Positions 25,304 to 60,699 of a stretch of 64,000 bases of DNA are shown here, one piece after another. Below the pieces are notes generated by a model. That model saw only the letters and a program-made list of their open reading frames with translations, did no database searches and was not told the DNA's origin. The first letter of the stretch is position 1, and each line of letters opens with the position of its first letter. Origin of the DNA: an uncultured Clostridia bacterium (GTDB lineage: Bacteria > Bacillota > Clostridia > Christensenellales > UBA1242); assembly GCA_947589025.1 (NCBI GenBank), contig CANQAY010000004.1, positions 32,430 through 96,429 of the forward strand, read 5' to 3'. A program made the position numbers and the translations under genes.

Positions 25304-26428
25304 ATGATTAATAAAGATTTTTTTGAAGCATTAAAAGATTTGCAAGCCGAAAAGGGCATTAATGAAGATGTTTTTATTGAGGCACTTGAACAAGCTTTAA
25401 CCGCTGCCTACAAAAAGAATAGTGGCATGGCTAAAAATGCACAAGTTAAGCTTTTTCCAGAAAAGAACACAATAAAAATATATTCTTACCGCACAGTTGT
25501 TAGCGAAGTGGAAGACGAAGAAAAGGAAATAAGCTTAGAAGAAGCCAAACAAATTAAACACTCTTATAAAGTGGGCGATTTAGTTATGCAGGAAGAATCC
25601 ACTAAAGATTTTAACCGTATAGCCGTGCAAACAGCAAAACAGGTTATAACCCAAAAAATTAAGGAAATTGAAAAGCAATCAATTTATAAGGATATTGCCG
25701 AAAAAGAGGGCAAACTTATTGTTGCCAATGTTAAACGTATTGATTTAGACAATGTTTACCTTGAAATTGGCGGAACAACATTAGAGGGTTTGCTAACAAA
25801 ACGCGATGTTTTGCCTAACGACAATTTAAAGCCAGGTGACCGCATTAAAGTTTATGTTCGCCACATTAAAGACGATTTTAAAGGCACAGTTGTTCAAGTT
25901 ACCAGAACGCATCCAAACTTTGTTAAATTGCTTTTGGAAATGGAAGTGCCAGAACTAAATAATGGTGAAGTTAACATTGTTGGCATTGTTAGGGAGGCAG
26001 GTTTAAGAACAAAAATTGCCGTTCAATCCACTGTTGCTAATCTTGACCCCGTTGGTGCTTGCGTTGGCAATAAAGGCAGCCGAATCAGTGCCGTTATAAC
26101 CGAGCTTAAAGGCGAAAAGATTGACATTATAAACTATAGTGAAAATCCAGCAGATTACATTGTGGCAGCACTTTCACCAGCCGAAGTTAGTGAAATTACA
26201 GTTGACACAGCGGCCGGCGTTGCCAATGTGCTTGTGCCAGAAAATAAACTTTCGCTTGCAATTGGCAAGGGTGGGCACAATGTAAGGCTTGCAGCCAAAT
26301 TAACTGGCTATAAAATAGATGTTAAACCAGTTAGTTCAACCCCTAAAAATAAGGTTAATGATGTGGTTAGCACCTCAAATGTAAACATTATTTTGGATGA
26401 CGACTTCTTTGAAGATATAGATGAGTAG
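25304..26428 (+). CDS. nusA: Transcription factor NusA
   Basis: RIAVQTAKQV, S1 domain, REAG.RTKIAV, DPVGACVG, SLAIGKGG.NVRLAAKLTG. Confidence 0.98.
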   Translation: MINKDFFEALKDLQAEKGINEDVFIEALEQALTAAYKKNSGMAKNAQVKLFPEKNTIKIYSYRTVVSEVEDEEKEISLEEAKQIKHSYKVGDLVMQEESTKDFNRIAVQTAKQVITQKIKEIEKQSIYKDIAEKEGKLIVANVKRIDLDNVYLEIGGTTLEGLLTKRDVLPNDNLKPGDRIKVYVRHIKDDFKGTVVQVTRTHPNFVKLLLEMEVPELNNGEVNIVGIVREAGLRTKIAVQSTVANLDPVGACVGNKGSRISAVITELKGEKIDIINYSENPADYIVAALSPAEVSEITVDTAAGVANVLVPENKLSLAIGKGGHNVRLAAKLTGYKIDVKPVSSTPKNKVNDVVSTSNVNIILDDDFFEDIDE

Positions 26429-32247: not shown

Positions 32248-32721
32248 ATGAAATGGTTGCTAATATCCACATTAATATGCGTTATTATGTTAATTGCATT
32301 TGCGTTAACCGAACAATATAAGGATAAGTTTGATTTTTACAACAATTTAAAGATATTTTTAAATCAATTTAAAATAAACCTATCGTTTAAGCAAGAAAAG
32401 GTTAACGAGTTTTTATCTAAAACCGAATGCAAAAAGCAATTTAAAATTTTTATTGACGAATATAAAAACTATCTCAAAACTGACAATTTATCATTTGAAA
32501 AAATTAAAATTTTAGAGCAAAATGAAAGGCTTCAGTTAGAAAACATTGTTAAATGCATTGGCAAATATAATGCCCAAAGCGAAATAGAACAACTGGATAG
32601 TTTTATTTTAGATATTGATGAAAAATTAAAAAAAGCAAATGAAGATAAAACAAAATTGTGCCCATTAATAATTAAATTGTCACTTCTTTTTGCAATAGGG
32701 CTTGCCATTTTATTAATTTAG
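32248..32721 (+). CDS. spoIIIAB: Stage III sporulation protein AB
   Basis: Terminal TM helices, size and position in the operon. Confidence 0.75.
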   Translation: MKWLLISTLICVIMLIAFALTEQYKDKFDFYNNLKIFLNQFKINLSFKQEKVNEFLSKTECKKQFKIFIDEYKNYLKTDNLSFEKIKILEQNERLQLENIVKCIGKYNAQSEIEQLDSFILDIDEKLKKANEDKTKLCPLIIKLSLLFAIGLAILLI

Positions 32722-39599: not shown

Positions 39600-40292
39600 A
39601 TGAGCATAATAACAAAACTTAAAACCATTTCCGAACGGAAATATATTATTGTTATGGGCAAGTTGGCTTTTATAAAAAACTTGCTTTATTTTGCTTTTAA
39701 AGTTACAGTTGGGTTTTTAACACATTCGCTTTTCCTTATTGCAATTGCAATTTATTCTGCCTTCATTGGCATTGTTAAAAACAATTGTTCAAGGGGGCTA
39801 AAAAAGAATAAAGATACTCTTCGTGATATTTATTCTTACATACGCGGCGGTGCCATCCTTGCCAGTTCAAGTATAATGTATATAATTTATTCTATATTTC
39901 AAATTTTTTATCCAACCAACTCACAATATCATATGGTTTTGGCCATTGCAATTGCAACCTTTGCCACATTTGCCATAACAATTTCCATAATTGGCGTTGT
40001 TAAAGCAAAGGGCAAAACAATGCTTATAAAAGAGTATAGGCTAACCAATTTGGCAACGGCTTTTAATAACATTGTGCTTGCCCAAATCGCCATATTGTCA
40101 TTTACAAACCCAGACGGTCAGTTGGCATTATATAACGGCTTAAGTGGTGTAGCTGTTGGCATAATAGTACTAGGCATTGGGCTTTATTTATTAATAGATG
40201 GAATATTGAAAAAGAAAAAATACTATCAATTAATAAAAAAATATCCAGATTTCTTTAATCACCCAGTGTTTAATAACAATTCAACAAAATAA
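39600..40292 (+). CDS. Hypothetical membrane protein
   Basis: About 6 hydrophobic segments; followed by terminator AAGTGTC-TTCA-GGCACTTTTT. Confidence 0.7.
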   Translation: MSIITKLKTISERKYIIVMGKLAFIKNLLYFAFKVTVGFLTHSLFLIAIAIYSAFIGIVKNNCSRGLKKNKDTLRDIYSYIRGGAILASSSIMYIIYSIFQIFYPTNSQYHMVLAIAIATFATFAITISIIGVVKAKGKTMLIKEYRLTNLATAFNNIVLAQIAILSFTNPDGQLALYNGLSGVAVGIIVLGIGLYLLIDGILKKKKYYQLIKKYPDFFNHPVFNNNSTK

Positions 40293-40387
40293 GTGTCTTC
40301 AGGCACTTTTTTAGTTTATTTTTAACAAAATTATAAAATACACTTGATAATTATAAATAATTATGTTATATTATAGAAGTCAATCGT

Positions 40388-40462
40388 GGCTCTATAGTCT
40401 AGAGGTTAGGACGCGACCCTCTCACGGTTGAGACTGGGGTTCGATTCCCCATAGGGCTACCA
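40388..40462 (+). tRNA. tRNA-Glu (anticodon CUC)
   Basis: Acceptor GGCTCTA/TAGGGCT, anticodon arm CGACC-CTCTCAC-GGTTG, T arm TGGGG-TTCGATT-CCCCA, encoded ACCA end. Confidence 0.95.
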
Positions 40463-40487
40463 TAATTATAAAGCAGTATGGAGTTGT

Positions 40488-40844
40488 ATGGACGATAAAA
40501 ATAACTTTGTTTTTAAAGACAAAGATACAACGATTAATTTTCAAGGTTTATCTCTAAAGCAATTAAAAAATATTCTTGAATTGGCTGTTTGTTTAGTTGA
40601 CGATAAACAATATAAAAAACTTGAAAGCATACACAAACAAAAATATAAAAATTCTCAAATAAGAATGTGTGTAGATGATGAAAACGGAATCGATACGATC
40701 GTTGAATTAACACGCTGTGGAGATCTCTTTGATATTACAATGGGAACAAATTTAGATCCAATAACCGCAATAAATAGTAAAAATCTAACAAAGAAACAAT
40801 TTCAGTTATTTATAAAAGAGCTAGACGCTTTTATTAAAAAATAA
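40488..40844 (+). CDS. Hypothetical protein
   Basis: 118-aa ORF with GGAG SD right after the tRNA. Confidence 0.55.
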   Translation: MDDKNNFVFKDKDTTINFQGLSLKQLKNILELAVCLVDDKQYKKLESIHKQKYKNSQIRMCVDDENGIDTIVELTRCGDLFDITMGTNLDPITAINSKNLTKKQFQLFIKELDAFIKK

Positions 40845-40863
40845 CTTACCTTTTGTACTAAAG

Positions 40864-42378
40864 ATGAAAAGCCGCTGGTTTAATTATCGTCCATTATGTT
40901 TAGTTTTTTTGTTCCTTTTAATAGGAAGCATTTTTGCTTTTTATGTGGTTTCTAACAGCATAGCTTCAATAATAATTATTGTTATTACGTTCGCCATAAT
41001 TTTGCTAGTGGCAATATTAAAACGCAAAATTAAATATTTTATTATTCCATTAATTTCTTTTGCTTTGGGTGCCGGATGTTACAACTTGGCAGTTTCTAAC
41101 TTTTCTAAAACTATAGAAAAGCAGCCATCGTTAGTTCAAGCCCGAATTTATAGAGTGCAAGAGACTAATGATAATTACACCCGCGTTTATGCAGATAACG
41201 TTACATTTGATGGGGAGAGTGCGAACTCCAACCTTATTATTTACATTTATGATGACGAAAGTCTTTATAAAAACATTGAAATTGGCAGTGTTATTTCTTT
41301 TGTTCCGCTCAATTTTTATGAAAGCGAGCTGTTTTATTATGAAACGCCTAATGCCGGATATTTTAACGAAAATTTAAAATATACCGCCTCAGTTAATATG
41401 GAAAGTGTTAATTACATAAAAACTGATAAAACCTTGGCGGAATTAGTTAAGGAAAGAATAAAAGAAAATTTAGCTAACGGGCTTAATAACGAAAATTTGG
41501 AATATTCATATGCATCCTTGTTTGGCGATAAAGATACGCTAAACGATAACTTATATGGCAACTTTAAACTTTCTGGCATTGCGCATTTGTTGGCTGTATC
41601 TGGCTTGCATGTTGGCATAATTGCCTCAATTTTAACATTTATTTTAAACAAACTTAAAGCCAAACGTGTTGTTAAATTGATAGTGATTTCCGCCTTTTTG
41701 CTAATTTATGCCTATTTATGCAATTTTTCAGTATCCGTCATTCGCGCTTCAATAATGACCATTTTTATGCTGTTAGCGCCACTGTTTTATAGGGAATATG
41801 ACAGCGTTTCCGCAATTTCGTTTGCTGGCATCATTATATTTTTACTTAATCCATTAACAGCTTTTGATGTTAGTTTTCTTTTAAGTTTTAGCTGTGTGTT
41901 GGGCATAATAATGCTTTACAAACCAATTAAATATGCAGTTGCCAAAACCAAAATGCCAACAAAAATTACCGATGCCTTTTCAATAAGTTTAGCAACAACC
42001 ACATCTTTAATTTTTATTATGGCTTACTATTTTAACAACCTTAACATTATTGCTTTGTTGGCAAACATCATTTTAATTCCTATATTTACCTTTGCATTTA
42101 TGATAATTTTTGTTCTGGCAATGCTTTCATTAATTTTGCCATTTATAACTTATTTGCTGTTCCCAGTTAATTACATATTAAATTTCATTGCGCTGGTGGC
42201 CAATATTTTAGGCAATTTGCCAATTGCAAACTTCGCCACAATATCAACGCCGTATCTATCCATGTTATTATATTTTATTTTAATATTCCTATTGGGCAGG
42301 TTCTGCACGGCAGATAAAAAATATAAAATTTTATTATCCATTCCAACAGTTGCAATTTTAATTATAAGTTTGCTATAA
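40864..42378 (+). CDS. comEC: ComEC/Rec2 family DNA-uptake channel (no C-terminal metallo-beta-lactamase domain)
   Basis: GIAHLLAVSGLHVG, SVIRASIM, NP....DVSF.LSF; upstream of holA. Confidence 0.9.
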   Translation: MKSRWFNYRPLCLVFLFLLIGSIFAFYVVSNSIASIIIIVITFAIILLVAILKRKIKYFIIPLISFALGAGCYNLAVSNFSKTIEKQPSLVQARIYRVQETNDNYTRVYADNVTFDGESANSNLIIYIYDDESLYKNIEIGSVISFVPLNFYESELFYYETPNAGYFNENLKYTASVNMESVNYIKTDKTLAELVKERIKENLANGLNNENLEYSYASLFGDKDTLNDNLYGNFKLSGIAHLLAVSGLHVGIIASILTFILNKLKAKRVVKLIVISAFLLIYAYLCNFSVSVIRASIMTIFMLLAPLFYREYDSVSAISFAGIIIFLLNPLTAFDVSFLLSFSCVLGIIMLYKPIKYAVAKTKMPTKITDAFSISLATTTSLIFIMAYYFNNLNIIALLANIILIPIFTFAFMIIFVLAMLSLILPFITYLLFPVNYILNFIALVANILGNLPIANFATISTPYLSMLLYFILIFLLGRFCTADKKYKILLSIPTVAILIISLL

Positions 42379-42385
42379 TAATAAT

Positions 42386-43300
42386 ATGAAATTTATTGAA
42401 CTTGTGGGCAATTTAAAACAAAACATTCTTCCGCTATATAACATAAAAGGGGAAGATGCATTTTTGGTGCGCCAAGCCATTTTAAATATAAAAAGGACAG
42501 TGGTAAGCGACATGGAAGAGTTTAACTATTTAAAATTAGAAGCTGACAAAATGAAGCCAACCGAACTTGTTGCTACAATTTCCACATTGCCAATTTCAAG
42601 CGAACATAGGCTTGTTGTGCTGGTTAACCCATCTAACGATGTGGTTAAAACCTTAAATAAATATGATTTTGCCGATAACTCAACTGTTGTTGTAACCGTT
42701 AATGCGTACAAACTAACAAAAGGCGAAACAATTGATTGCTCCAAATTAGATAAAGCGGACATTCAAAAATATGTGTTAAACATGTTAAACAAAAACAACC
42801 TTTCTATTCAAGAGCAGGCAGTTGACTATTTAATTGAAGCAACAAATGGCAATATGTCTTACATTTCAAGCGAATTAAACAAATTAATAAGCTACGCTAT
42901 AGATAAAGAGGTTATTACAATTGAAATGGTAACAAATCTTGTTGCAAACACAACAGAATATGCCGTTTATCTTTTAACAAACGCAATAGATTTAAAAGAC
43001 TATTCAAAATATCAAGCAATAATAAACGAACTCAGCAAACACAACACGGCAAACGAACTTTTTTCGTATATGGGCAAATATTTTAGGCGTATGCAATATA
43101 TAAGTTTAAATAAAAATGATAATGAGTTAGCAACTATATTGAACATTAAGCCATATGCAATTAAAATGTCTAGGCAGGCTGTTGCAAAAAATGGCATTAA
43201 TTATTACATTAACCTTTATCAAAAATATATAGACCTTGATTATAAAATTAAATCGGGCAAAATATCGGCTTTAAACGCATTATACGAACTTGTGTTTTAA
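42386..43300 (+). CDS. holA: DNA polymerase III delta subunit
   Basis: PLY.I.GED.FL, FNY, TLP...E.RLV, ELNKL, D.KIKSG; comEC-holA-rpsT synteny. Confidence 0.88.
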   Translation: MKFIELVGNLKQNILPLYNIKGEDAFLVRQAILNIKRTVVSDMEEFNYLKLEADKMKPTELVATISTLPISSEHRLVVLVNPSNDVVKTLNKYDFADNSTVVVTVNAYKLTKGETIDCSKLDKADIQKYVLNMLNKNNLSIQEQAVDYLIEATNGNMSYISSELNKLISYAIDKEVITIEMVTNLVANTTEYAVYLLTNAIDLKDYSKYQAIINELSKHNTANELFSYMGKYFRRMQYISLNKNDNELATILNIKPYAIKMSRQAVAKNGINYYINLYQKYIDLDYKIKSGKISALNALYELVF

Positions 43301-43340
43301 ACATTTTGAAATTTTATAGTTTTTTGCTATAATGATTAAT

Positions 43341-44003
43341 ATGAACGAACTTTTAATTCCAAGCAAAATTGTGCACAGCAAAAGAAAAAGCATTGCTTTA
43401 ATTGTGGATAGAGAAGGGCAATTGGTTGTGCGTGCACCTTTACATTGCAAAGATGAGGATATAACAGACTTTATATTAAAAAAGTCTAATTGGATAATTA
43501 CAAAGCGCAGCGAATATCTAAATAGCGCTTTTAAGGTTTTAACCTTTAACAATGGCGAAACTGTTCAAATTTTAGGCAAACCTTACCGCATTTCACTATA
43601 TAATGGCTATAAAGTATATTTAAAAGACGATTGTATCTGTATACCAACTGTTAAGCCAAGTGTTAGATTAAAACAATATTTACGTAATTTAACCAAAACA
43701 ATTATTAACGAAAAAGTTACATTTTATTGCCAAAATTATAACTTAACACATAAACAAATAACCATAACCGGCGCCAAAACGAGATGGGGCTCGTGCGGAT
43801 ACAAAAACAGCTTAAACTTTACTTACAAATTGGCAATGTGCCCAGAGGATGTTATTGACTATGTGGTTGTTCACGAACTTTGCCATACAATAGAAAAAAA
43901 TCATAGCAGAAAGTTTTGGGCCAGGGTGGCGGATATCCTTCCAAACTATAAGCAACAAGAAAAATGGCTTAAAGATAATAAGCGCATTATTGATGTAATA
44001 TAA
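43341..44003 (+). CDS. M48/YgjP-like (DUF45) zinc metalloprotease family protein
   Basis: SKRKSI, VVRAP, TRWGSC, IDYVVVHELCH, NHS..FW. Confidence 0.9.
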   Translation: MNELLIPSKIVHSKRKSIALIVDREGQLVVRAPLHCKDEDITDFILKKSNWIITKRSEYLNSAFKVLTFNNGETVQILGKPYRISLYNGYKVYLKDDCICIPTVKPSVRLKQYLRNLTKTIINEKVTFYCQNYNLTHKQITITGAKTRWGSCGYKNSLNFTYKLAMCPEDVIDYVVVHELCHTIEKNHSRKFWARVADILPNYKQQEKWLKDNKRIIDVI

Positions 44004-44026
44004 AAAAACACCTTAACGGTGTTTTT
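44002..44026. terminator. Bidirectional terminator
   Basis: AAAAAAACACC-TTAAC-GGTGTTTTT. Confidence 0.75.
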
Positions 44027-44282
44027 ATTTTGCGGTGTAAACAGATAATCTAGCTTTCTTTCTATTGGCAGTTGCTTTTTGCAAAATGCCCTTAGATACA
44101 GCAGAATCTATTAAAGAAAAAGCCTCACTCAAATATTTTTGAGCATTTTCAGCCTCTTTATTATCAACAGCCAACTTATATTTTTTAACTTGAGTTGCAA
44201 TCTTAGATTTATAAGATTTATTCTCTAAAGTTTGTCTATTAATAACTTCAATTCTCTTTTTTGCTGATTTGATATTAGCCAT
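44025..44282 (-). CDS. rpsT: 30S ribosomal protein S20
   Basis: MANIKSAKKR, ID.A.SKGI, A.RKKARL; GGAGG SD. Confidence 0.98.
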   Translation of the reverse strand: MANIKSAKKRIEVINRQTLENKSYKSKIATQVKKYKLAVDNKEAENAQKYLSEAFSLIDSAVSKGILQKATANRKKARLSVYTAK

Positions 44283-44370
44283 ACAAACCTCCAATCTTTG
44301 TTATTATAACAAACATTTTTTTATTTTGCAAGTAGTTTAACAAATTTTTTATAAATTCATAAACTATATT

Positions 44371-45039
44371 ATGTTAAAAAAGTTAAGGCCCACCATAGGC
44401 ATTATTGATAGCGGCATTGGTGGAATAAGCATTTTAAACGCCTTAAAAGCAAAATTTAAAGGTGGAAATTATATCTATTTTGCGGATAATTTAAACATGC
44501 CATACGGCAATAAAAGTGCAAAATTTTTAAAAAATAGGGTAAACAACTTAATTAATTATTTAAAAACAAATTATTTAACCGATTATATTTTTATAGCCTG
44601 CAACACGGCATCAAGCGTGCTAAAACTAGCAGATGCCGATGTTATAAAAATGCAATTTGACACAAATTATACATATTTAGTAACCCCACTAACAAAACAG
44701 ACTTTGCAAAACATAAATGTTGTGGCCGACAAAACCCTTGCAAAACTCATTGAAAAACATATATTTAACACAAAGGCTTTAAATAGAATAATTAAATATC
44801 ACGTTAATTTGCACAAACTAAATGCAATGGATTGTTTTGTGCTTGGCTGCACACATTATGAACTTGTTTATGATTTGTTTAAAAAATATTGTCCTAATAG
44901 CAAAATTATAAAAAATTCCGATTTTATTTTAAAAGATTTTAATATGAATTTTGAAACCAACGAAACATCAATTCTATTTTTACAATCTAAAAGTTCTAAA
45001 AGCTATATTCAAAAATTAAAATCGTTGGTGGAGGATTAA
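44371..45039 (+). CDS. murI: Glutamate racemase (shortened)
   Basis: DSGIGG, PYG.KS, IACNTAS and LGCTHY catalytic Cys motifs. Confidence 0.85.
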   Translation: MLKKLRPTIGIIDSGIGGISILNALKAKFKGGNYIYFADNLNMPYGNKSAKFLKNRVNNLINYLKTNYLTDYIFIACNTASSVLKLADADVIKMQFDTNYTYLVTPLTKQTLQNINVVADKTLAKLIEKHIFNTKALNRIIKYHVNLHKLNAMDCFVLGCTHYELVYDLFKKYCPNSKIIKNSDFILKDFNMNFETNETSILFLQSKSSKSYIQKLKSLVED

Positions 45040-45040
45040 C

Positions 45041-46711
45041 ATGTGCGGAATATATGGTTATGTTGGCAAATTAGATGCTTATAACGAGGTTTTTAATGGC
45101 CTAAAATTGCTTCAATATAGGGGTTATGATAGTTGCGGAATTGCATATTTAAGCAATAACGAATTGAAAATTGTTAAAACAGTGGGCACAATTGACAATT
45201 TGCCAAAAATCAAAATAAAGTGTAATTTATCGTTTGGACACACAAGATGGGCTACCAACGGGGCGGTTAATTATGACAACACGCACCCACACATTTCATT
45301 TGATAAACGCTTTACGGTTGTTCACAACGGAATAATCTACAATGCCAACGAAATAAAACTGGCATTGCAAAATAAGGGGATTAATTTCTATTCAAATACG
45401 GATACTGAAGTTATTGCCAATTTACTTGCTAGCCTTAACGGAGATGTAGATGAAAGAATTAAAAGCTTGTTTAATCATTTAAAAGGCACTTTTGCTTTAA
45501 TAATAGAAAATGAAGGTGCGCTATATTTGGTTAAAAAGTTTAGCCCATTAAACATTTTAAAAGCCGAAGATGGCATCTACATATCAAGTGATGTAAGCAG
45601 TTTAAAAACTGGGCAGCTTTATTCACTTAAGGATTATGATGTAATAAAAATAAAAGACAACCAAATTTTGCCATTATCTGGGGAAATCGCGTTCACTAAA
45701 TATAATAATTGCATACAAAATTATTCGCTAAATAATTTCCCTCATTTTATGCTTAAAGAGATATATGAAACTCCAACTGCCATTGAAAACACATATAATT
45801 ATTTAAAAGATATTGATGTTTCCCCTTATTTTAAAAACATTAAAGATATAACATTAATAGGATGTGGAACGGCATATCATTCATGTTTAATAGGCGGAGA
45901 GGTGTTAAAAAAGCTTAACTTTAACATAAAAACAGAACTTGCATCTAATTTTACTTTATTTAAAAAAATAAATAAACATCATTTGCACATCATTGTTAGC
46001 CAAAGTGGGGAAACTGCTGACTGCATAAAAGCGGCAGAAAACATTAAAAAATTTGGCGGCAAAATTTTGGTTATAACCAATGAGGCTAAAAGTAGCATTG
46101 TAAAATTTGCTAACCACATAATTTTAACCAAAGCACAAAAAGAACTGGCAGTGGCAAGCACAAAAACATATTGTTCTCAAGTTTTTGCTTTTATTTTAAT
46201 TGCCAAAAAATTAAAAAATGCAAATTACACAATTAACATTAAAAAATTTAAAAAAAGTTTAACAAATTACATTAAAAATTCAAACATAATTTCAGCTGCA
46301 AAAATGCTAAGCAAATTAGATAAAACTATTTTAATTGGCAAAGACATTGATTATTTAACCCTGCTTGAAGCTAGCTTGAAAATAAGAGAAATAGACTATA
46401 TTTACACAATTCCAATCTATTCGGGCGAACTAAAACACGGCACACTTTCGCTAATAGATAATCAAAGCATTGTGCTATCTTTAAACACGGATAATGTTGC
46501 CAACAAACTAAGCAATGCAATAAACGAAATAGAATCTCGCGGCGGAAAAGTAATTAAATTTGAACAATTTATGCCAAAAAAATATTATAAAGATTTTAGC
46601 TGCATTTATTCAATAATTCCATTTCAACTTTTTAGTTATTTTATAGCTATTGAAAAAGGCTACAACCCCGATATGCCCAAAAATTTGGCAAAAAGTGTAA
46701 CAGTTGAATAA
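45041..46711 (+). CDS. glmS: Glutamine-fructose-6-phosphate transaminase
   Basis: MCGI, YRGYDS, GHTRWAT, HNGII, SQSGETAD, VASTKTY, GELKHG, NLAKSVTVE. Confidence 0.96.
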   Translation: MCGIYGYVGKLDAYNEVFNGLKLLQYRGYDSCGIAYLSNNELKIVKTVGTIDNLPKIKIKCNLSFGHTRWATNGAVNYDNTHPHISFDKRFTVVHNGIIYNANEIKLALQNKGINFYSNTDTEVIANLLASLNGDVDERIKSLFNHLKGTFALIIENEGALYLVKKFSPLNILKAEDGIYISSDVSSLKTGQLYSLKDYDVIKIKDNQILPLSGEIAFTKYNNCIQNYSLNNFPHFMLKEIYETPTAIENTYNYLKDIDVSPYFKNIKDITLIGCGTAYHSCLIGGEVLKKLNFNIKTELASNFTLFKKINKHHLHIIVSQSGETADCIKAAENIKKFGGKILVITNEAKSSIVKFANHIILTKAQKELAVASTKTYCSQVFAFILIAKKLKNANYTINIKKFKKSLTNYIKNSNIISAAKMLSKLDKTILIGKDIDYLTLLEASLKIREIDYIYTIPIYSGELKHGTLSLIDNQSIVLSLNTDNVANKLSNAINEIESRGGKVIKFEQFMPKKYYKDFSCIYSIIPFQLFSYFIAIEKGYNPDMPKNLAKSVTVE

Positions 46712-48949
46712 TTAAACATACCATTTCTTTTTACTTGTTTTAATTTGATTATTAAGTTTATTTACAATATAATCTTTTGGCCTAATTTTAATTTGTTCCT
46801 CTTTTTCATTATCCGATAACACATAACAAATTTCATTAAAGTTAAATATATTGTTATCAAAATAATCAATATGTCCCAACTTGTTTTTATAGCAATTTAC
46901 AAGCTCTTTTTTGCCGTTAATCAATTTATATAAATTATATTCTTTGTTTGGTAAAGCTAAAAAAGATATGTTTGCGCCATCGTTAGTTATTTCTGCCGTT
47001 AAATTAAATTTGCTAGAATTTGTATTAACTGCTGGTGGGTTAGAAAGTTTAAAATAGTCGTAAGCAATATATCTATCCAAATTTACAGTTGGTGCAATAA
47101 TTTTGTGATTTTGCTCATATTCAATTAAATCATATGGCATTTTCGCAACAGAACTAGGGCAGGCGAAATCTTTTGGCTGTCTATTTTTATAAAGATTAGC
47201 CAATATCTGTTTATTAATTTCGGTTGCCTGTGCTGAACTATAAAAATTGTCTGGCAAAAATTTATTTTTTATGTTTGCAATCCAACAAAAAACAGTGTGT
47301 TCATTAGTATACGCAACATTATATAAATCAGTAGTTTTTCCGCCAACCGATGCCGTGCCGGTTTTGCTGCAAACTGGCAAATTTAAGCTATTAAGCCGCC
47401 TTGCAGTGCCACTAATGGCAGCATCCTTTAGCATGTTGTTAATTAAATAGCAGTCGTCTTCATTAAGCACTCTTTCGCTGTAAGGAGAATACTCATAAAC
47501 AATACTTCCTTTTTCGTCTAAAATTTTGTTAACAAAAGTTACGCCGTTATCTTCGCCCATATTGGCAAGAATTGAATATGCATTAAGCATTTTCATCAAT
47601 GGAATGCCATTTTTAGTTGACCCCAAAGCTAAGCTTAAGTTTAAGTCGCTTTTATCAATAAAAATGCCTAGTTTGTTTAAATATTCCTTGGCAGCATTTA
47701 GGCCGGCAAATTCAAGGGCCTTAACTGCCGGAATGTTGTAAGAATTTTTAATGGCATCACGCGTGGAAACATATCCATGAAACTTGTTATCGGCATTTGT
47801 TGGGGCAAAGCCATTATAATCAATTTTTTCATCCAAAATTTGCGTTGCGGGTGTTAAAATGTTGTTTGCCACATTGGGTAAATAAACTGCCAAAGGCTTT
47901 AAAAGTGAAGCGGATTGCCGCTTTAAGTTATGCAAGTTGTAGTTAGAATTAGCGTAATATGCAACAACTTGCCCACAATTGTTAACAACAACAGAAAGGC
48001 TATCCAAATTTTTATCTCCATCTAAAACTTTGGCATTACAACTAATAACTTGTTGTTGCAAATCATCATCTTTAAAGGTAATTATTTGATACTTTTTGTT
48101 AATTAAGTCGCGTTCGCTTATATTTAAAAGTTTGCATGCTTCATAAATGGCTTCTTCCTCATATGCATGGTCAAATTCATTAAAATTAACAATTTCTATG
48201 CCCGAATTTATAACCGCGTTGTATTCTTGCGCGTTAATATCCTTAGCTTTAAAAAGTTGCTTTGCCACCAAATTTTTTCTGTTAACTGAATTTTCATAAT
48301 TGGTTATTGGGGAATATGTATAGGGCGATTTTATAATTCCGGCAAGCACGCAAACTTCATTTAAGGTTAAATCTTTTGCCGATTTGTTAAAATAAACCTT
48401 GCTAGCATTTTCAATTCCGTATGCATTAGAGCCAAAATATATAGTGTTTAAATACATCTCTAAAATGTCATCTTTGCTAAACTTTTTTTCCATTTTCATT
48501 GCCAAAATTATCTCTTTAATTTTTCTTGCATATGTTTTTTCGTTAGTTAAAAGTGCATTTTTAACAAGCTGTTGGCTTATGGTGGAAGCCCCCTGCGATT
48601 TTGAATTTGTTAATAAATTTACGGCTCCCGCCTTTAAAATTCGTTTTAAATCAAAGCCGTTATGCTTATAAAATCTTTTGTCTTCAACATCCACAAACGC
48701 TTTTTTAACATAAGTAGGCAAAGTTTCAATTTCAATTATCGATCTATCAGTATTATAAAGTGTGGTTTCGCTCATACTTGCCGAATAAACTTTAATGCCA
48801 TTATTCATTTTAGTAAGGCTATCTACATCTAAATCATATTTGTTATATAAAATTGTAAAACCAATGCCAAAAACCAAAAAAGTGCTTGAAATAAGCAAGC
48901 AAAACACCAAAAGCACTTTTTTAAAGGTTTTTTTCTTTTTATTTTTCAT
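46712..48949 (-). CDS. Class A penicillin-binding protein (PBP1A-like)
   Basis: TM anchor; GT51 motifs EDKRFY.H.G, GASTISQQL, RKIKE, YLN.IYFG; TP motifs SLLK, SYN, KTG. Confidence 0.92.
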   Translation of the reverse strand: MKNKKKKTFKKVLLVFCLLISSTFLVFGIGFTILYNKYDLDVDSLTKMNNGIKVYSASMSETTLYNTDRSIIEIETLPTYVKKAFVDVEDKRFYKHNGFDLKRILKAGAVNLLTNSKSQGASTISQQLVKNALLTNEKTYARKIKEIILAMKMEKKFSKDDILEMYLNTIYFGSNAYGIENASKVYFNKSAKDLTLNEVCVLAGIIKSPYTYSPITNYENSVNRKNLVAKQLFKAKDINAQEYNAVINSGIEIVNFNEFDHAYEEEAIYEACKLLNISERDLINKKYQIITFKDDDLQQQVISCNAKVLDGDKNLDSLSVVVNNCGQVVAYYANSNYNLHNLKRQSASLLKPLAVYLPNVANNILTPATQILDEKIDYNGFAPTNADNKFHGYVSTRDAIKNSYNIPAVKALEFAGLNAAKEYLNKLGIFIDKSDLNLSLALGSTKNGIPLMKMLNAYSILANMGEDNGVTFVNKILDEKGSIVYEYSPYSERVLNEDDCYLINNMLKDAAISGTARRLNSLNLPVCSKTGTASVGGKTTDLYNVAYTNEHTVFCWIANIKNKFLPDNFYSSAQATEINKQILANLYKNRQPKDFACPSSVAKMPYDLIEYEQNHKIIAPTVNLDRYIAYDYFKLSNPPAVNTNSSKFNLTAEITNDGANISFLALPNKEYNLYKLINGKKELVNCYKNKLGHIDYFDNNIFNFNEICYVLSDNEKEEQIKIRPKDYIVNKLNNQIKTSKKKWYV

Positions 48950-55629: not shown

Positions 55630-56854
55630 TACTTTAAAATTTTTAAACGAATGCGAAAAAGAATGCCAGCAGCAATTTGAACAAATTGCTAAAATTGAAT
55701 TTGATAATCAACTAAAGGTGCTTAACGCCTTTAATGAGGCGGGGGTAGAGGCTCGCCATTTTATAGGAAGCACAGGTTATGGTCATAATGATATTGGCAA
55801 AGAGAAGCTGTGTGAAGTTTTTGCCCGGGTTTTTAATGCCGAATCCGCATTTGTAACCCCTTTAATAAGTTGCGGCACAGAAGCAATTAGCCAAACGTTG
55901 TTTGGGCTACTGCGCCCAACAGATAGTATGCTTTGCATAAGCGGCACACCATATGACACTTTAAAATCAGTAATACACGGCCAAGAGGGTAAAGATATTG
56001 GTTCACTTAAAGATTACAATATAAAATATAGCGAAGTTGCTTTAAAGTACAACGATTTTGACCTGCCAGCCATAATAAAAGCAGTTAAAAGCAAAAACCC
56101 AAAACTTATTTATATTCAACGTTCGCGCGGGTATTCGCTTAGAAATGCCCTTAACATATCTCAAATTGAAAACGCCATTAAAGCAATTAGGCAATCTGGC
56201 TGCAAGGCGTATGTTGTTGTGGATAACTGTTATGGCGAGTTTACAGAGACCAAAGAGCCAACCGATGTTGGGGCAGATATTGTGGTAGGTTCACTTTTAA
56301 AGAACATGGGTGGGGGCATAGCACCTACAGGCGGGTATATCGCCGGCAAGCAGAATTTGGTTGAAAAGGTGGTTTTTAAAGCCATGAGCCCCGCATTAAG
56401 TTCAGATAATGGCTCGTACGAATTAGGGTATAAGGCATTTTTTGAAGGGTTGTTCGTTTCACCACATGTGGTGGCAGAGGCAAAAAAGTTAACCGTTCTT
56501 GCGAGCTATTCGTTATCAAAACTAGGGTATGAAACCAACCCTAAACCGGGCGACAAACTTTCTGACATTGTCTGCTGCATCAATTTTAAGGATAAATCTA
56601 AACTTATAAATTTCACTAGGGCAATTCAATACGCCAGCGCAGTTGACAGCAATTCCACATTAGAGGCCGGTGATATGGACGGCTATGAAGACAAAATTAT
56701 AATGGCCAGCGGAAGTTTTAATCAGGGCAGCAGCATAGAACTAAGTTGCGATGGCCCAATCCGTCCGCCATACGCAGCATTCCTTCAAGGCTCGCTAAGC
56801 TACGCCCATGGCAAAATAGGATTAGCTTATGCAATAGAAAAATCCCTCCTTTAG
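55610..56854 (+). CDS. ynbB: YnbB / methionine gamma-lyase family (aluminium resistance) PLP protein
   Basis: STGYG..D.G, G.PYDTL, IQRSRGY, DNCYGEF, GSLLKN.GGGIAPTGGY, SIELS.DGP. Confidence 0.9.
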   Translation: MIKIKNDTLKFLNECEKECQQQFEQIAKIEFDNQLKVLNAFNEAGVEARHFIGSTGYGHNDIGKEKLCEVFARVFNAESAFVTPLISCGTEAISQTLFGLLRPTDSMLCISGTPYDTLKSVIHGQEGKDIGSLKDYNIKYSEVALKYNDFDLPAIIKAVKSKNPKLIYIQRSRGYSLRNALNISQIENAIKAIRQSGCKAYVVVDNCYGEFTETKEPTDVGADIVVGSLLKNMGGGIAPTGGYIAGKQNLVEKVVFKAMSPALSSDNGSYELGYKAFFEGLFVSPHVVAEAKKLTVLASYSLSKLGYETNPKPGDKLSDIVCCINFKDKSKLINFTRAIQYASAVDSNSTLEAGDMDGYEDKIIMASGSFNQGSSIELSCDGPIRPPYAAFLQGSLSYAHGKIGLAYAIEKSLL

Positions 56855-56871
56855 GTGGGATTTATTTTTTT
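56840..56871 (+). terminator. Intrinsic terminator after ynbB
   Basis: AAATCCCTCC-TTTA-GGTGGGATTT plus T run. Confidence 0.7.
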
Positions 56872-57005
56872 GCAAAAAATGCGGGTTTTCTTGCATTGGG
56901 GCATTTGGGTCCAAGGTGCAAGAAAACGGCTTTTTCTTTATCTATTATCTCCAAATATCCATTAGGGTAGGGCTAATAAGCATTATCAAACGCCTTAAAA
57001 GCCAC

Positions 57006-57153
57006 TGTGCATAACTGTGCATAACTATGGGGCAGTGCGGAAAGTTTTATCCATATCTTTGCGTAAAAGCCTTCTTTTACGCAAAGATTGTGCCAAAAAT
57101 GGCCTAATTTGTGTGGAAAACACCAAATTTGTCCACAGCCAGCCAGTTGATAA
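57006..57153. promoter_or_regulatory. Cluster of DnaA-box-like 9-mers
   Basis: TGTGCATAA (57006, 57016), TTATCCATA (57047), TGTGGAAAA (57112), TTGTCCACA (57129), each one mismatch from TTATCCACA; AGTTGATAA (57145) two mismatches. Confidence 0.65.
57055..57088. other. Candidate dif-type recombination site
   Basis: ATCTTTGCGTAAAA-GCCTTC-TTTTACGCAAAGAT, perfect 14-bp arms with a 6-bp spacer; arm recurs at 57440, 57498 and 59505; about 2.4 kb from a tyrosine recombinase gene. Confidence 0.65.
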
Positions 57154-57280
57154 CTTTAAGCATGTTTAAAACATGTTTGGCTCGTCAGCCAAAATTGGCA
57201 CTGCAAAAAAACGACTTTTTGTAAACTTCGTTAATTAATTAATTTTGCAACAAAACGCCATTTTCTTGCACGGCTCAAAT

Positions 57281-57413
57281 TTGCAAGTTAACCAATTGTT
57301 CATCTTATTGTTCCGCAATTCGTCTCACGGCAGATCTCTTAACCCCATCGGCTGACCGATTGCTGACTTATATTATTATTTCAATTTTTAAATAATTTGG
57401 TTAAAGCTGGCAA
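57281..57413. ncRNA. Candidate structured non-coding RNA (long hairpin with central bubble)
   Basis: Pairings 57281-57300/57391-57413, 57315-57324/57354-57363, 57329-57335/57347-57353; no family recognised; strand unknown. Confidence 0.3.
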
Positions 57414-57439
57414 TTATCAGCGGAAAACCGCGAAATATC

Positions 57440-57511
57440 ATCTTTGCGTAAAAACTGCTTAAAAATTATATTCAAATAATATCAACTATTAAACAACATC
57501 TTTGCGTAAAA
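57440..57511 (+). repeat. Two lone half-sites ATCTTTGCGTAAAA
   Basis: Exact copies at 57440-57453 and 57498-57511. Confidence 0.85.
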
Positions 57512-57533
57512 AAATCGGCTTATGCCGATTTTA
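57508..57533 (-). terminator. Terminator of serS
   Basis: AAAATCGGC-TTAT-GCCGATTTT with a T run on the minus strand. Confidence 0.75.
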
Positions 57534-57534
57534 A

Positions 57535-58818
57535 TTATTTTACCTTAATAACTTTTGTTCCGCCCATATATGGCCAAAGAACTTTTGGTATTGTTACGCT
57601 GCCATCCTTTTGCAGGTGGTTTTCCACAAAAGCAATCAGCATTCTAGGTGGCGCCACAACAGTGTTGTTTAATGTGTGGGCAAACTGATTACCCTTCTCC
57701 GTCTTATATCTTATGCCCAACCTACGCGCCTGTGCATCGGTTAAATTGCTGCAAGAGCCAACTTCAAAATATTTTTTCTGCCTTGGGCTCCATGCCTCAA
57801 CATCCAAGCTGCGATATTTTAAATCAGCCAAATCGCCCGAGCAGCAAACCAATGTGCGAACAGGTATTTCCATAGAAACAAACAACTCAACTGTATACTG
57901 CCACATTTTTTTATACCATTCTTCACTTTCTTCCGGCTTGCAGATAACCACCATCTCTTGTTTTTCAAACTGGTGAATGCGGTAAATCCCTCTTTCTTCC
58001 AAGCCGTGGGCGCCCTTTTCTTTTCTAAAGCAAGGGCTGTAAGAAGTTAAAGTTATTGGCAATTTTTCTTCTGGAATTATGGTATCCATAAATCGTCCAA
58101 TCATGGAATGCTCACTTGTGCCAATTAAATAAAGGTCTTCCCCTTCAATTTTGTACATCATGTTGCCCATCTCTTCAAAACTCATAACGCCTTGAACAAC
58201 ATTGCCGTGAATCATAAATGGCGGTATAACATAAGTAAAGCCCTTGTTTATCATAAAATCTCGCGCATAAGATAAAATTGCACTATGAAGCCTAGCAATA
58301 TCCCCGGTTAAATAATAAAAGCCTTGGCCTGATGTACGCCTAGCACTGTCAACGTCAATTCCGTCAAGCTTTTCCAAAATTTCGGTGTGATAAGGTATAT
58401 CAAAATCGGGCAGTTTAGCTTCCAAAAAGGTTTCCGCCTGAACATTTTTGCTATCGTCTTCACCAATTGGCACATCGTCTGCAATAATGTTTGGTATGCT
58501 CATCATGTTTTGCTTAATTTTGGCATCTAACTCAGCCGTCTCTTTTTCAATAACTGCAATACGCTCGTTATTCTTAACCACTTGGGCTTTAATTTTTTCG
58601 GCTTCATCTCGTTTGCCGACTTTCATTAAAACGCCAATTTCACCAGAAAGACTATTGCGCTTTGCACGCAATTCATCCCCTTCTTGTTTTAAAAGGCGCA
58701 CTTTTTTATCTAATTCAAGCACCTCATCAACAAGCGGCAATTTATGATTTTGAAATTTTTTCTTTATATTTTCTTTAACTTTTTCAGGGTTAGTTCTTAT
58801 TAAATTAATATCTATCAT
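57535..58818 (-). CDS. serS: Seryl-tRNA synthetase
   Basis: MIDI.LIR, IPN, YLIGTSEH, CFRKE.GA, RIHQF.KQE, EVGSCSN, HTLNNT. Confidence 0.97.
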   Translation of the reverse strand: MIDINLIRTNPEKVKENIKKKFQNHKLPLVDEVLELDKKVRLLKQEGDELRAKRNSLSGEIGVLMKVGKRDEAEKIKAQVVKNNERIAVIEKETAELDAKIKQNMMSIPNIIADDVPIGEDDSKNVQAETFLEAKLPDFDIPYHTEILEKLDGIDVDSARRTSGQGFYYLTGDIARLHSAILSYARDFMINKGFTYVIPPFMIHGNVVQGVMSFEEMGNMMYKIEGEDLYLIGTSEHSMIGRFMDTIIPEEKLPITLTSYSPCFRKEKGAHGLEERGIYRIHQFEKQEMVVICKPEESEEWYKKMWQYTVELFVSMEIPVRTLVCCSGDLADLKYRSLDVEAWSPRQKKYFEVGSCSNLTDAQARRLGIRYKTEKGNQFAHTLNNTVVAPPRMLIAFVENHLQKDGSVTIPKVLWPYMGGTKVIKVK

Positions 58819-58892
58819 AAATACTCCATTTCTTATTATACAAAAAAAAGCGCACTTTGTAAATCAAAATGCGAATTTTTTTAGATTTCTTG

Positions 58893-59411
58893 TTAAAGTA
58901 TTTCATCGCTTAAAAATGTGTTAAATGCGGTTAAAAATAAATCTTGGTCAACTGTCATGCCCGCCTTTTCTGCTTTTTCAGCATCTTTTAAGCGGCCAGC
59001 GTGCGCGCTAAATGTCCTATTTATGCTTGTGGCAATTGCGTTAGAAAACTTTTCAGCAAAAAGTTCGTTATGCTTTTGATATAAGTGATCGGTATCAGCA
59101 ATTAACTTCTCTGCCCTCTTTTCTGGCATGCCAGTAAATATAGACACTAATTGAGCATTGGTTAAATCGTCTTTTAGCTTATTTTCTTTTGCTTTAATAA
59201 GTTGCAACACAACACTAAATTTTAATTGGCAATAATGAGTTAAAACATACATTGCATTTTTAAATTTTTTATTGCAGAATTCAACAATGTTGTTATACCC
59301 TAAACCATATTTCTTTTCTATATCAATTAATTTATTAATATCTGATCTTTCAATTTCAGTTAAATGCATCAATTCTTCTAAGCCCTTTTTTCTTAACATT
59401 TCATTATCCAT
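58893..59411 (-). CDS. Hypothetical protein
   Basis: 172-aa ORF, GGAGG SD, perfect TTGACA-N17-TATAAT promoter at 59433-59461 (minus strand). Confidence 0.75.
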   Translation of the reverse strand: MDNEMLRKKGLEELMHLTEIERSDINKLIDIEKKYGLGYNNIVEFCNKKFKNAMYVLTHYCQLKFSVVLQLIKAKENKLKDDLTNAQLVSIFTGMPEKRAEKLIADTDHLYQKHNELFAEKFSNAIATSINRTFSAHAGRLKDAEKAEKAGMTVDQDLFLTAFNTFLSDEIL

Positions 59412-59499
59412 AATTCCTCCAAAGTTGTTAATATTATAAATTAATAATAAAAATATGTCAATTAATTTATAAAAAATAACAAAACACGCCTACAAATGT

Positions 59500-59528
59500 T
59501 TGTTTTTTACGCAAAGATGGTGTAAAAT
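59500..59528 (+). promoter_or_regulatory. Promoter of the recombinase gene, containing a dif-like half-site
   Basis: TTGTTT-N17-TAAAAT; TTTTACGCAAAGAT at 59505-59518; ATG 6 nt after the -10. Confidence 0.6.
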
Positions 59529-59534
59529 AAAATT

Positions 59535-60575
59535 ATGTCAAACAATTATTATTTAGATAGAAACCGCAACAATATGCGCAAATTAAATGAAATGTTAAAG
59601 GACTTGCCAACATTTTGTAGCATTTTCTTTATAGGCATACAAGATACCACAACACCATTAACCAGAATTAATTATGCTGTAGACTTAAAAACCTTTTTTA
59701 CTTACCTTACAACTTATGAAAGCGACTTTTTAAATAAGCCTTTTAACCAAATAACCATTGCCGATTTAGATAATGTTACCTCCCAAACCATTGAGCGCTA
59801 TATGGCCTATTTATCATATTACGATAAAGAAAATGGCGTTGTAATCACCAATTCTGAGCGTGGTAAACTGAGAAAACTATCCAGTTTGCGGGCATTTTTT
59901 AAATACTTTTTTAATAAAGATATGCTTAAAGCAAATGTGGCAAGCAAAGTTAGCTCACCCAAATTGCATGAAAAACCCATCATAAAACTAGAGCCGCAAG
60001 AAACACAAGAACTTATGTATTTTTGCGAAACCTTAAATGGATTTTCTAATCATCAACAAAAATATAATGAAAAATTTAAAATTAGGGATAATGCCATAAT
60101 TTCACTATTTTTAACTACGGGGATACGTGTTAGCGAATGTGTTGGCCTTAATATTGATGACTTTAACTTTACCCTTAATTCGTTTAGAGTTACAAGAAAA
60201 GGCGGCAACCAAGTTATATTATATTTTGGTGAAGAAACCTCCAAAATTTTGCAAGATTATTTAAAGTATAGAGACAGTTTAAATGTGCCAAAAGAAGAAC
60301 GCGCCATGTTTTTATCTAGCCAAAATAAGCGCATGATGGTTCGAACTATGGAATATTTAGTTAAAAAATATACTAAATTGGCCACCCCTTTAAAAAACAT
60401 TACCCCACACAAACTGCGCTCTACTTATGGCACAAATTTGTATAATGAAACAAAAGACATTTACATTGTTGCCGAAGTTTTGGGCCACAAAGATGTTAAC
60501 ACAACCAAAAAACACTATGCCGCAATTAGCGATGATATCAGGCGTTCTGTTGCAGGAAAGGTAAAATTAAAATAG
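59535..60575 (+). CDS. Tyrosine recombinase, XerS/XerC-like
   Basis: Complete catalytic set TGIRVSE, RKGG, TPHKLR, LGH, HY; 346 aa; next to lexA as in clostridial ynbB-xer-lexA clusters. Confidence 0.9.
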   Translation: MSNNYYLDRNRNNMRKLNEMLKDLPTFCSIFFIGIQDTTTPLTRINYAVDLKTFFTYLTTYESDFLNKPFNQITIADLDNVTSQTIERYMAYLSYYDKENGVVITNSERGKLRKLSSLRAFFKYFFNKDMLKANVASKVSSPKLHEKPIIKLEPQETQELMYFCETLNGFSNHQQKYNEKFKIRDNAIISLFLTTGIRVSECVGLNIDDFNFTLNSFRVTRKGGNQVILYFGEETSKILQDYLKYRDSLNVPKEERAMFLSSQNKRMMVRTMEYLVKKYTKLATPLKNITPHKLRSTYGTNLYNETKDIYIVAEVLGHKDVNTTKKHYAAISDDIRRSVAGKVKLK

Positions 60576-60648: not shown

Positions 60649-60699
60649 CGAAAAAATTTTCGAAAAATATCGAACAAATGTTTGACAAACAATTGTTTT
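60649..60699. promoter_or_regulatory. LexA boxes in the lexA promoter
   Basis: CGAACAAATGTTTG (60671), CAAACAATTGTTTT (60686), CGAAAAAATTTTCG (60649), around TTGACA (60682)..TATTAT. Confidence 0.75.

Follow-up and report, generated by a model that had tools for sequence, protein, structure and literature searches.

We analyzed a 64,000-nucleotide stretch of DNA (the window) from an uncultured Clostridia bacterium of the order Christensenellales, positions 32,430 to 96,429 of contig CANQAY010000004.1 (C4) in assembly GCA_947589025.1 (G000; 962,226 bases, 19 contigs, 99.26% complete), and describe a locus that very probably carries a single-recombinase Xer/dif system. The gene order is miaA, a methionine-γ-lyase-like gene, a 680-base intergenic region, serS (minus strand), an open reading frame (ORF) of 172 amino acids (aa; minus strand), a tyrosine recombinase gene (plus strand), lexA, a PadR-type gene and an ATP-binding cassette (ABC) ATPase gene. 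The intergenic region contains a palindrome and two single copies of its 14-base arm (Table 1). Genome assemblies, contigs and loci are given below by G, C and L numbers.

The palindrome, its half-sites and their chromosomal position

The 14-mer ATCTTTGCGTAAAA occurs in five exact copies within 2.5 kb, all of them where the preliminary description of this DNA had placed them. The copies at 57055-57068 (plus strand) and 57075-57088 (minus strand) form a perfect 14-N6-14 palindrome of 34 bases with the spacer GCCTTC, and the three single copies have no recognizable partner arm at 6-base distance. Base composition predicts 0.023 exact copies genome-wide, compared with the five observed, a significant excess. 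There is no further copy at 0 or 1 mismatch in the 962,226 bases, and the genome-wide scatter that the preliminary description had named as a sign of a transcription-factor site is thus not seen. The count at up to two mismatches in the window (6 versus 2.61 expected, with 6 reached in 5 of 100 shuffles) is not significant alone. The palindrome is intergenic and single-copy in the genome, and its two inverted arms around a 6-base center have the layout of a dif site. An Rfam scan of 56500-60000 (E ≤ 1) returned five weak matches, all far under their gathering scores; the intergenic region is not accounted for by any RNA family. Contigs from three public runs of one study cover the stretch piecewise, show no joints at the sites and are uninformative on inversion, excision and expression.

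Positions 57497-57513 are the reverse complement of 59503-59519, a 17-base identity between the second satellite and the promoter copy that was noted at the outset and can be read directly in the sequence. Two inverted copies that share 17 bases and bracket 2 kb next to a recombinase gene could in principle bound an invertible segment, comprising serS with or without the 172-aa ORF and flipped by the recombinase. Both copies are, however, lone arms without a partner and hence provide no crossover site, serS is antiparallel to the recombinase gene in 12 of 12 loci of the genus and also in G211 and G181, and flipping an essential, single-copy tRNA ligase gene would be of no evident use. We consider such a switch very improbable.

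The palindrome is located at a switch of guanine-cytosine (GC) skew. The cumulative skew maximum of C4 (C4:89183, window 56754) is 301 bp from the palindrome; the contig has positive skew between 3 kb and ∼88 kb and negative skew past that point, except for ∼4 kb (C4:93-97.5 kb) that carry the plus-strand block of recombinase, lexA, PadR-type and ABC genes, and the genes left of the maximum are nearly all on the plus strand. In G027, a single contig of 2,422,126 bases, dnaA (1,254,057) and the recombinase ortholog (24,225) are 50.8% of the circle apart, and the skew maximum (25,634) is found 0.3 kb from the site (∼25,321-25,354). In G022 (2,560,186 bases) dnaA (∼911,000) and the site (2,270,628) divide the circle 47/53%, with the maximum (2,269,332) 1.3 kb off the site, and in G049 maximum (131,039) and palindrome (131,758) are 0.7 kb apart. 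The skew minimum coincides with dnaA in both complete relatives, G022 and G027. The skew switch expected at dif is therefore seen in G000, G022, G027 and G049, and the opposite position of dnaA in G022 and G027. When we searched G000 with dnaA, dnaN, recF and gidB of the close relative G049 (L238, G049:C2:6000-16000), tblastn returned no match in the assembly (E ≤ 0.01); of that origin neighborhood only a putative mnmG-like gene matched, on C8. The origin region is probably unassembled in this genome.

Table 1. Features of the locus, in window coordinates
Feature	Position	Strand	Remark
Candidate dif palindrome ATCTTTGCGTAAAA-GCCTTC-TTTTACGCAAAGAT	57055-57088		Two 14-base arms; asymmetric 6-base central (putative crossover) region 57069-57074
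XerS-like tyrosine recombinase, 346 aa	59535-60575	+	Only conserved Xer-type enzyme of the genome
Lone half-site in recombinase promoter, putative autoregulation operator	59505-59518	-	Ends 4 bases before the -10-like TAAAAT
Predicted -10 hexamer TAAAAT	59523-59528	+	6 bases before ATG
Lone satellite half-site, 14-mer followed by A	57440-57453	+	No partner arm 6 bases away
Lone satellite half-site adjoining the serS terminator hairpin, downstream side	57498-57511	+	17 bases in common with promoter copy
Cluster of five DnaA-box-like 9-mers (≤1 mismatch)	57006-57137 (G000:C4:89435-89566)		On both sides of the palindrome, within 124 bases
serS, seryl-tRNA ligase	57535-58818	-	410 bits (cut-off 301.65); between site and recombinase gene, outside the proposed mechanism
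172-aa ORF	58893-59411	-	Strain-specific insert that separates serS from the recombinase promoter; no component of the system

Family of the recombinase and its co-variation with the site

The recombinase matches Pfam PF00589 (Phage_integrase; 111 bits, cut-off 27.1) and has the complete catalytic set claimed for it earlier (R198, K222, H292, R295, H318 and Y328), in motifs that align with streptococcal XerS. Its best model is the XerS equivalog NF003462 of NCBIfam (176.2 bits), which it matches below the curated cut-off of 267; residues 11-339 align to model positions 4-352 of 360, a full-length architecture of ∼350 aa that includes the long N-terminal domain. XerS is also the best model for ten of ten orthologs from other genomes (160-200 bits, all below 267), with full-length alignments in nine and a best listed stretch at model positions 182-353 in G027. 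The models for XerC (TIGR02224, 160 bits versus a cut-off of 335) and XerD (TIGR02225, 153 versus 330) are both missed by the recombinase, and no other gene in the genome scores higher on either. No canonical XerC or XerD, which the preliminary description had listed as an outcome that would speak against it, was found in the genome. There are five Phage_integrase matches genome-wide: besides the recombinase, one is a pseudogene and three are intact, none of these three exceeding 87 bits with any Xer model. A 309-aa recombinase on C1 is present in none of 25 other genomes of the genus. RecA, SMC and FtsK with a γ domain are encoded.

The recombinase shares 28% sequence identity with XerS from Streptococcus sanguinis (291 residues, E 2e-23), and the catalytic motifs of the two align. 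A quick maximum-likelihood tree (IQ-TREE, 59 rows, without XerH, XerL or XerA) places the clostridial proteins in one clade (support of 95 in the Shimodaira-Hasegawa-like approximate likelihood ratio test), apart from XerS (100), XerD-like (98) and XerC-like (100) proteins and without resolution of the deeper order. Constraining XerS and the clostridial clade into one group gave a higher likelihood and was not rejected (p = 0.827 in the approximately unbiased test), for a group that was named after the tree was viewed and that has long branches. A check by phylogeny had been proposed, and its outcome is mixed: XerS is the nearest family by hidden Markov model, yet the score remains below the XerS cut-off and the proteins form a clade of their own with an unsettled sister relation. 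Judged by its sequence, the recombinase is for these reasons XerS-like and not XerS proper. XerH structures were not among the PDB matches at E ≤ 1e-10, although XerD and XerA appeared. Close public relatives of the recombinase are from Candidatus Onthoplasma, a genus that NCBI places in Christensenellales, and from a "Clostridiales bacterium".

Of 61 genomes of the order, two (G019 and G023) have a XerD above the curated cut-off; 57 of the 61 match the XerD model at E ≤ 1e-30, mostly through the 350-370-aa ortholog at 134-158 bits. The two XerD genes (G019:C2:478935-479798 and G023:C1:970080-970943) are from larger genomes that also have the XerS-like gene and its site, with 24 kb between the XerD and XerS-like genes in G023, and two Xer systems may coexist there. 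Coexistence of Xer systems has been noted for Lactobacillus helveticus (Kono 2011, accessible part). XerD-like genes were found in each of five other Clostridia that lack the ortholog; in three of the five the score exceeds the cut-off, and in four there is a second XerC-like gene.

The ortholog is present in 28 of 31 relatives, at 78-95% identity within the genus (full-length matches; 61% in G003) and ∼50% in 11 of 12 other families of the order, and 31 of 151 genomes in a class-wide sample match at E ≤ 1e-40. Of 41 genomes of the genus, 37 have the 14-mer (≤1 mismatch), among them all 24 of good quality; a reversed control pattern is rare. The order palindrome, single copy (plus), serS (minus), single copy (minus), recombinase is found in 11 of 12 genus loci; the twelfth, in G048, has the same layout divided between two contigs. 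Within the genus the palindrome arms always vary jointly (variants ...GCGC..., ...TTTTCGC... and ...CATTGCGC...), and serS again separates palindrome and recombinase gene in G211 and G181, which are from different genera of this family.

At 10 of 11 order-level loci (L024-L033, with L034 the exception) a related palindrome, CTATTCGYAAAA-N6-TTTTRCGAATAG, lies ≤1.5 kb from the ortholog, often with the spacer CTTGTG, CTTGTA or CTTGTC or its reverse complement. It is single-copy in four of five genomes (G020, G021, G023 and G025; G022 has one extra site with one mismatch). The same type is found beside 5-7 of 29 loci in the class sample (L080, L081, L085, L087 and L092; weaker in L084 and L086) and is absent by all eight distant homologs (32-37% identity). 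In other families of the order (G020, G021, G022, G025 and G027) the site is located 60-120 bp upstream of the gene. The distance here is 2.4 kb with a half-site at the promoter, so that the linkage of gene and site known from XerS is seen in this genome as well. Arms thus differ by lineage while gene and site remain linked.

This conservation bears on whether the protein could be the integrase of a mobile element and the palindrome its attachment site instead of a housekeeping dif. Pfam returns only "Phage_integrase", close relatives carry public names such as "integrase" or "tyrosine-type recombinase/integrase", and single-recombinase dif-xer modules have been likened to integration modules (PMC1914069, accessible part). 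A mobile gene would not be expected to be kept at 78-95% identity within one conserved order (miaA, lyase gene, site, serS, recombinase, lexA) at every one of the 11 genus loci with the 14-mer, or to have an ortholog in 28 of 31 relatives with no element genes around it; moreover, it is the sole Xer-type enzyme of a 0.96-Mb genome with RecA. We regard a mobile origin as very improbable.

We also scanned our genome collection with the difSL arms quoted in a review (PMC5357621), and the matches are overwhelmingly from Streptococcus. At 12 Streptococcus loci the site reads TTTCCGAAAA-ACT[A/G]TAA-TTTTCTTGAAA, and in 11 of them a gene for a protein of 356-357 aa starts 80-110 bases downstream (the twelfth locus ends too soon). 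In 8 of the 12 the left arm with its flank, ATC+TTTCCGAAAA+A, is ATCTTTCCGAAAAA, which has 12 of its 14 bases in common with the 14-mer here; the 12/14 match with the difSL left arm in the preliminary description accordingly holds against named genomes.

Microvirus prophages at the site in relatives

The Microviridae capsid family is found in 4 of 41 genomes of the genus (G008, G031, G048 and G050). All four prophages, 5.2-5.6 kb in size, are positioned between a hybrid junction (host arm, spacer, phage sequence) and an intact site, and the intact site is always on the recombinase side. In G048 (L047, G048:C10) the 14-mer, the spacer and 42 bases of left flank are present in three copies spaced 5171 and 5173 bases from one another; copies one and two run into ATTTTTGACA... 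and the third is the complete palindrome. The two prophage units, in tandem, are 97.9% identical. Their genes specify capsid protein F (565 bits), a Chlamydia-phage-type scaffold, an ORF5 DNA-binding protein, a pilot-like protein, Rep and a helix-turn-helix repressor, and there is no recombinase among nine selected ORFs of the unit (57-556 aa, from all frames ≥40 aa). This integrase scan covered the G048 unit alone; prophage ORFs in G008, G031 and G050 are known solely from tblastn searches with capsid, scaffold and Rep. The G031 prophage (L250, G031:C61) has a capsid 44% identical to that of G048, and the G008 prophage (L252, G008:C3) has a lone arm-plus-spacer junction on one side and the intact site on the other. 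G050 (L251, G050:C3) has different dif arms, GTTTTCGCAAAA-TCTGTA-TTTTGCGAACAA, and 30 bases are repeated at the far junction. The same junction as in G048, with a 99%-identical scaffold gene, is found on a short contig of G035 (L247/L248). The junctions in G048, G035, G031, G008 and G050 all share host arm and spacer and diverge thereafter, and the phage-side flank in G048 and G031 includes a DnaA-box-like word. An exact search of viral contigs for the G048 phage junction gave no matches. Among 80 related microvirus contigs scanned for host-type arms, L254 has a lone 12-base arm (∼0.2 expected by a rough estimate, and maybe due to chance), and L257 is itself a prophage with host flank carrying the palindrome and a satellite.

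As read from these sequences, the prophage architecture is the signature of elements exploiting Xer. Integrase-free gokushovirus prophages of Escherichia integrate at dif via XerC, XerD and a phage dif-motif (PMC7062461, accessible part), Xer-dependent integration at dif has also been proposed for microviruses of Bacteroidetes (PMC3091885, accessible part), and predicted microvirus prophages are listed for Bacteroidales, Hyphomicrobiales and Enterobacteriaceae only (PMC9753089, accessible part). Gram-positive microvirus hosts were only speculated upon (Roux 2012). The elements described here resemble these prophages in their length of 5.2-5.6 kb, in capsid F, scaffold, pilot and Rep, and in being flanked by a host-type and a hybrid site. 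They differ in that their hosts lack XerC and XerD, which makes the single XerS-like enzyme the candidate for phage integration. We regard the prophages as the strongest single argument for strand exchange at the palindrome.

They also bear on the idea that the 14-mers are operators of an ordinary transcription factor that governs the recombinase gene and its neighbors, with the terminus position a coincidence. One copy does lie in a promoter, palindromes are typical of operators, and lexA and PadR-type genes are nearby. An operator would hardly explain why phages without an integrase insert at the central region of the site, why the site is linked to the recombinase gene and changes sequence along with it across families, or why it is always at the skew maximum. 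The neighboring 172-aa ORF is not conserved, and the 14-6-14 geometry suits the core site of a tyrosine recombinase and resembles difSL. An operator function in place of dif is, in our estimate, highly improbable.

Taken together, the terminus position, the lack of XerC and XerD, the linkage and co-variation of gene and site, the likeness to difSL and the prophages at the site in relatives argue strongly that the palindrome is dif and that the gene at 59535-60575 encodes the single Xer-type recombinase acting on it. The XerS-like single-recombinase system with a symmetric site that was proposed in the preliminary description is supported on each of these counts.

Half-sites outside the palindrome, proposed mechanism and known Xer systems

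In all but one (G046) of 12 genus genomes, a TATAAT or TAAAAT hexamer lies 2-6 bases past the half-site upstream of the recombinase gene. The gap between hexamer and ATG is 6 bases in G000, G014, G003 and G072, the latter from another genus that likewise has the promoter half-site, and from this gap a leaderless mRNA is predicted. A consensus promoter scanner placed the -10 element five bases further on than the hexamer in Table 1. In G003 the palindrome arms read CTATTCGTAAAA and the promoter copy CTATTCGCAAAA, and hence the promoter half-site co-varies with the arms. Other families have the full site directly next to a -35-like TTGAC or TTGTT. The simplest reading is that a bound monomer would occupy the spacer of its own promoter. 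Of the self-repression suggested earlier, the conserved promoter geometry (11 of 12) and the co-variation in G003 thus stand, and repression itself is what we infer from them. The sequence ACAAATGTTTG is common to the recombinase promoter (59489-59504) and the region upstream of lexA (∼60668-60685). The lexA-upstream copy looks like an SOS box, whose form we take to be GAAC-N4-GTTT, and since the sequence is present in both promoters, the recombinase gene might be under LexA control too.

The satellite half-sites are real and conserved in the genus. Their number ranges from two (here) to at least eight per genome, with one to three between palindrome and serS, and a copy at the position corresponding to 57498 is present in 11 of 11 genus loci with the 14-mer (the terminator-like hairpin next to it spans 57511-57532 here). 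They retain the 14 bases and the following A though their flanks diverge, and they point away from the palindrome, on both sides of it in G036 and G048 and on one side here. Phage integration leaves lone arms, as at the hybrid junctions in G048, G031, G008 and G050, and together with the variable number this could mean that the lone half-sites are functionless scars of past phage integrations or duplications at dif. Scars, however, would face the intact site, and the satellites between palindrome and serS face away from it, which suggests that they are not simple scars; all 14 bases plus the A are kept against diverging flanks, and the promoter copy has a fixed distance to the -10 hexamer and co-varies with the arms. 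For the satellites we therefore consider an origin as scars doubtful, at perhaps one chance in a few.

A scan with a 9-mer consensus that we take to be that of the DnaA box located five such words around the palindrome, the second densest cluster in the genome. One word is directly adjacent to the left arm; 22 bases past the right arm there is an inverted pair, its members separated by 8 bases. The words near the palindrome are conserved in eight of eight aligned genomes of the genus and were not seen round the palindromes of G211 and G181. A tandem direct repeat of CTGTGCATAA (two copies) immediately left of the palindrome, at 57008-57030, consists of two degenerate DnaA-box-like words, where relatives read TGTGGATA. 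The densest cluster of the genome, six boxes in 118 bases (G000:C8:19263-19380, L239:4264-4381), is flanked by genes for a DHH-family protein and an amidase and lies 1 kb away from parB; skew is indecisive there as to an origin. The DnaA-box-like words prompted us to consider the palindrome as a replication origin instead of a terminus. This was ruled out by skew polarity, by gene orientation, and by the relatives, which place dnaA opposite, at the skew minimum. Besides the arm, ∼40 bases of left flank with a DnaA box recur in the phage attachment regions, and this would fit a functional flank. It is conceivable, if unlikely, that the recombinase is in addition a site-specific DNA-binding protein, a "terminus organizer" at dif in which self-repression, the outward half-site array and the DnaA boxes come together. 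Such an array might stop or unload FtsK, SMC or the replisome at dif and might couple dimer resolution to the replication initiator.

The 172-aa ORF has no Pfam, NCBIfam or PHROG match and is without a homolog in the 12 genus loci; G013 has a weak homolog at the same place (38% identity). A role as site-binding protein was ruled out, as the 12 loci retain the sites without the ORF and no family matches it. Elsewhere in the window, positions 40001-48000 have low G+C content (0.30-0.31) and a GC skew near zero within otherwise steady positive skew, and they contain the only long minus-strand ORF of that region (46712-48949); this segment may be acquired DNA.

Following the XerS, XerH and XerCD paradigms, from which the mechanism is drawn, one recombinase monomer would bind each 14-base arm, the two sites of a chromosome dimer would synapse at the septum, and strands would be exchanged across the 6-base center GCCTTC, the asymmetry of which would be the sole feature that gives the site a direction. 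The reaction would probably be licensed by FtsK through its γ domain. At the promoter half-site a monomer would probably bind between -35 and -10 and repress the recombinase gene, and the other lone half-sites near the palindrome may bind further monomers.

Several points weigh against a dif function of the palindrome and a dimer-resolving recombinase. All support for dif function is comparative. With the origin region missing, the terminus in this genome is defined by the skew of one contig and by gene orientation, plus the relatives. The prophage junctions likewise come from relatives, and none is seen in this genome. At 176 bits the recombinase remains under the XerS cut-off of 267, and with 28% identity to S. 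sanguinis XerS its function is extrapolated over a long branch. G019 and G023 have a true XerD besides the ortholog, which therefore need not be the dimer resolvase everywhere. The outward orientation of the satellites is predicted neither by the dif model nor by simple integration scars, and the conserved DnaA-box-like cluster lacks an explanation in that model.

The system is most readily compared with XerS/difSL (PMC1914069 and PMC2965235, accessible parts; PMC5357621), with which it has in common one recombinase of ∼350 aa, a linked site, the terminus position and the arm-6-arm layout. In other families of the order the site precedes the gene by 60-120 bp, much as difSL precedes xerS by 80-110 bp. 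In contrast, the arms are perfectly symmetric here and unequal in difSL (PMC5357621). In the present family serS intervenes between site and gene, the promoter retains a lone half-site and extra half-sites flank the site; the recombinase, at 28% identity and under the XerS cut-off, forms a separate clade for which a sister relation is allowed. Autoregulation through the site was already speculated upon for difSL-xerS (Le Bourgeois 2007; PMC1914069, accessible part), and XerS has been tested for recombination in a surrogate host (Nolivos 2010; PMC2965235, accessible part).

XerH/difH of Helicobacter and Campylobacter (PMC2731167; PMC5357621) is alike in its single recombinase of ∼355 aa, a site near the gene and the skew peak; difH has been described as similar to difSL, and XerH is said to be phylogenetically unrelated to XerS (PMC2731167; PMC5357621). 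XerL/dif of Legionellales (bioRxiv 10.1101/2021.09.12.459815; PMC9765430) also has a single recombinase and long, uninterrupted inverted-repeat arms, and its site was likewise revealed by an integrated mobile element, an argument of the same form as that from the microviruses here. The XerL site and gene are, however, >400 kb apart and the enzyme is not recognizably Xer by sequence, whereas here both are linked and the enzyme is clearly Xer-like.

The Bacillus subtilis terminus offers a further likeness, an Xer recombinase (XerD) with DNA sites near the terminus besides dif; binding to the lone half-sites is predicted here, and SMC is encoded in this genome. The extra B. subtilis sites are reportedly dif-like half-sites. 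Here, the extra sites are ≤0.5 kb from the putative dif (≤2.5 kb with the promoter copy) and have no link to SMC, in contrast to B. subtilis, where XerD is described as a sequence-specific SMC unloader in the terminus region (PMC12322038, accessible part, citing Karaboja 2021).

In the open-access literature, with supplements outside the scope of the search, we found as single-recombinase Xer systems only XerS (Streptococcaceae), XerH (ε-proteobacteria), XerL (Legionellales) and XerA (archaea). Among the open-access papers listed, none was found to describe such a system in Clostridia or Christensenellales; the supplementary dif tables of Kono 2011 and Kirchberger 2020 could bear on novelty.

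An XerS-like clade with its own dif family appears to replace XerCD across an order of gut Clostridia and in some neighboring lineages. Three of its features are seldom met in this field. A perfectly symmetric dif raises the question of how the order of strand exchange is set, and a half-site operator would make the old idea of xerS autoregulation directly testable. The natural microvirus insertions would mark the crossover region and connect gut gokushovirus-like phages with Clostridia hosts and with single-recombinase Xer.

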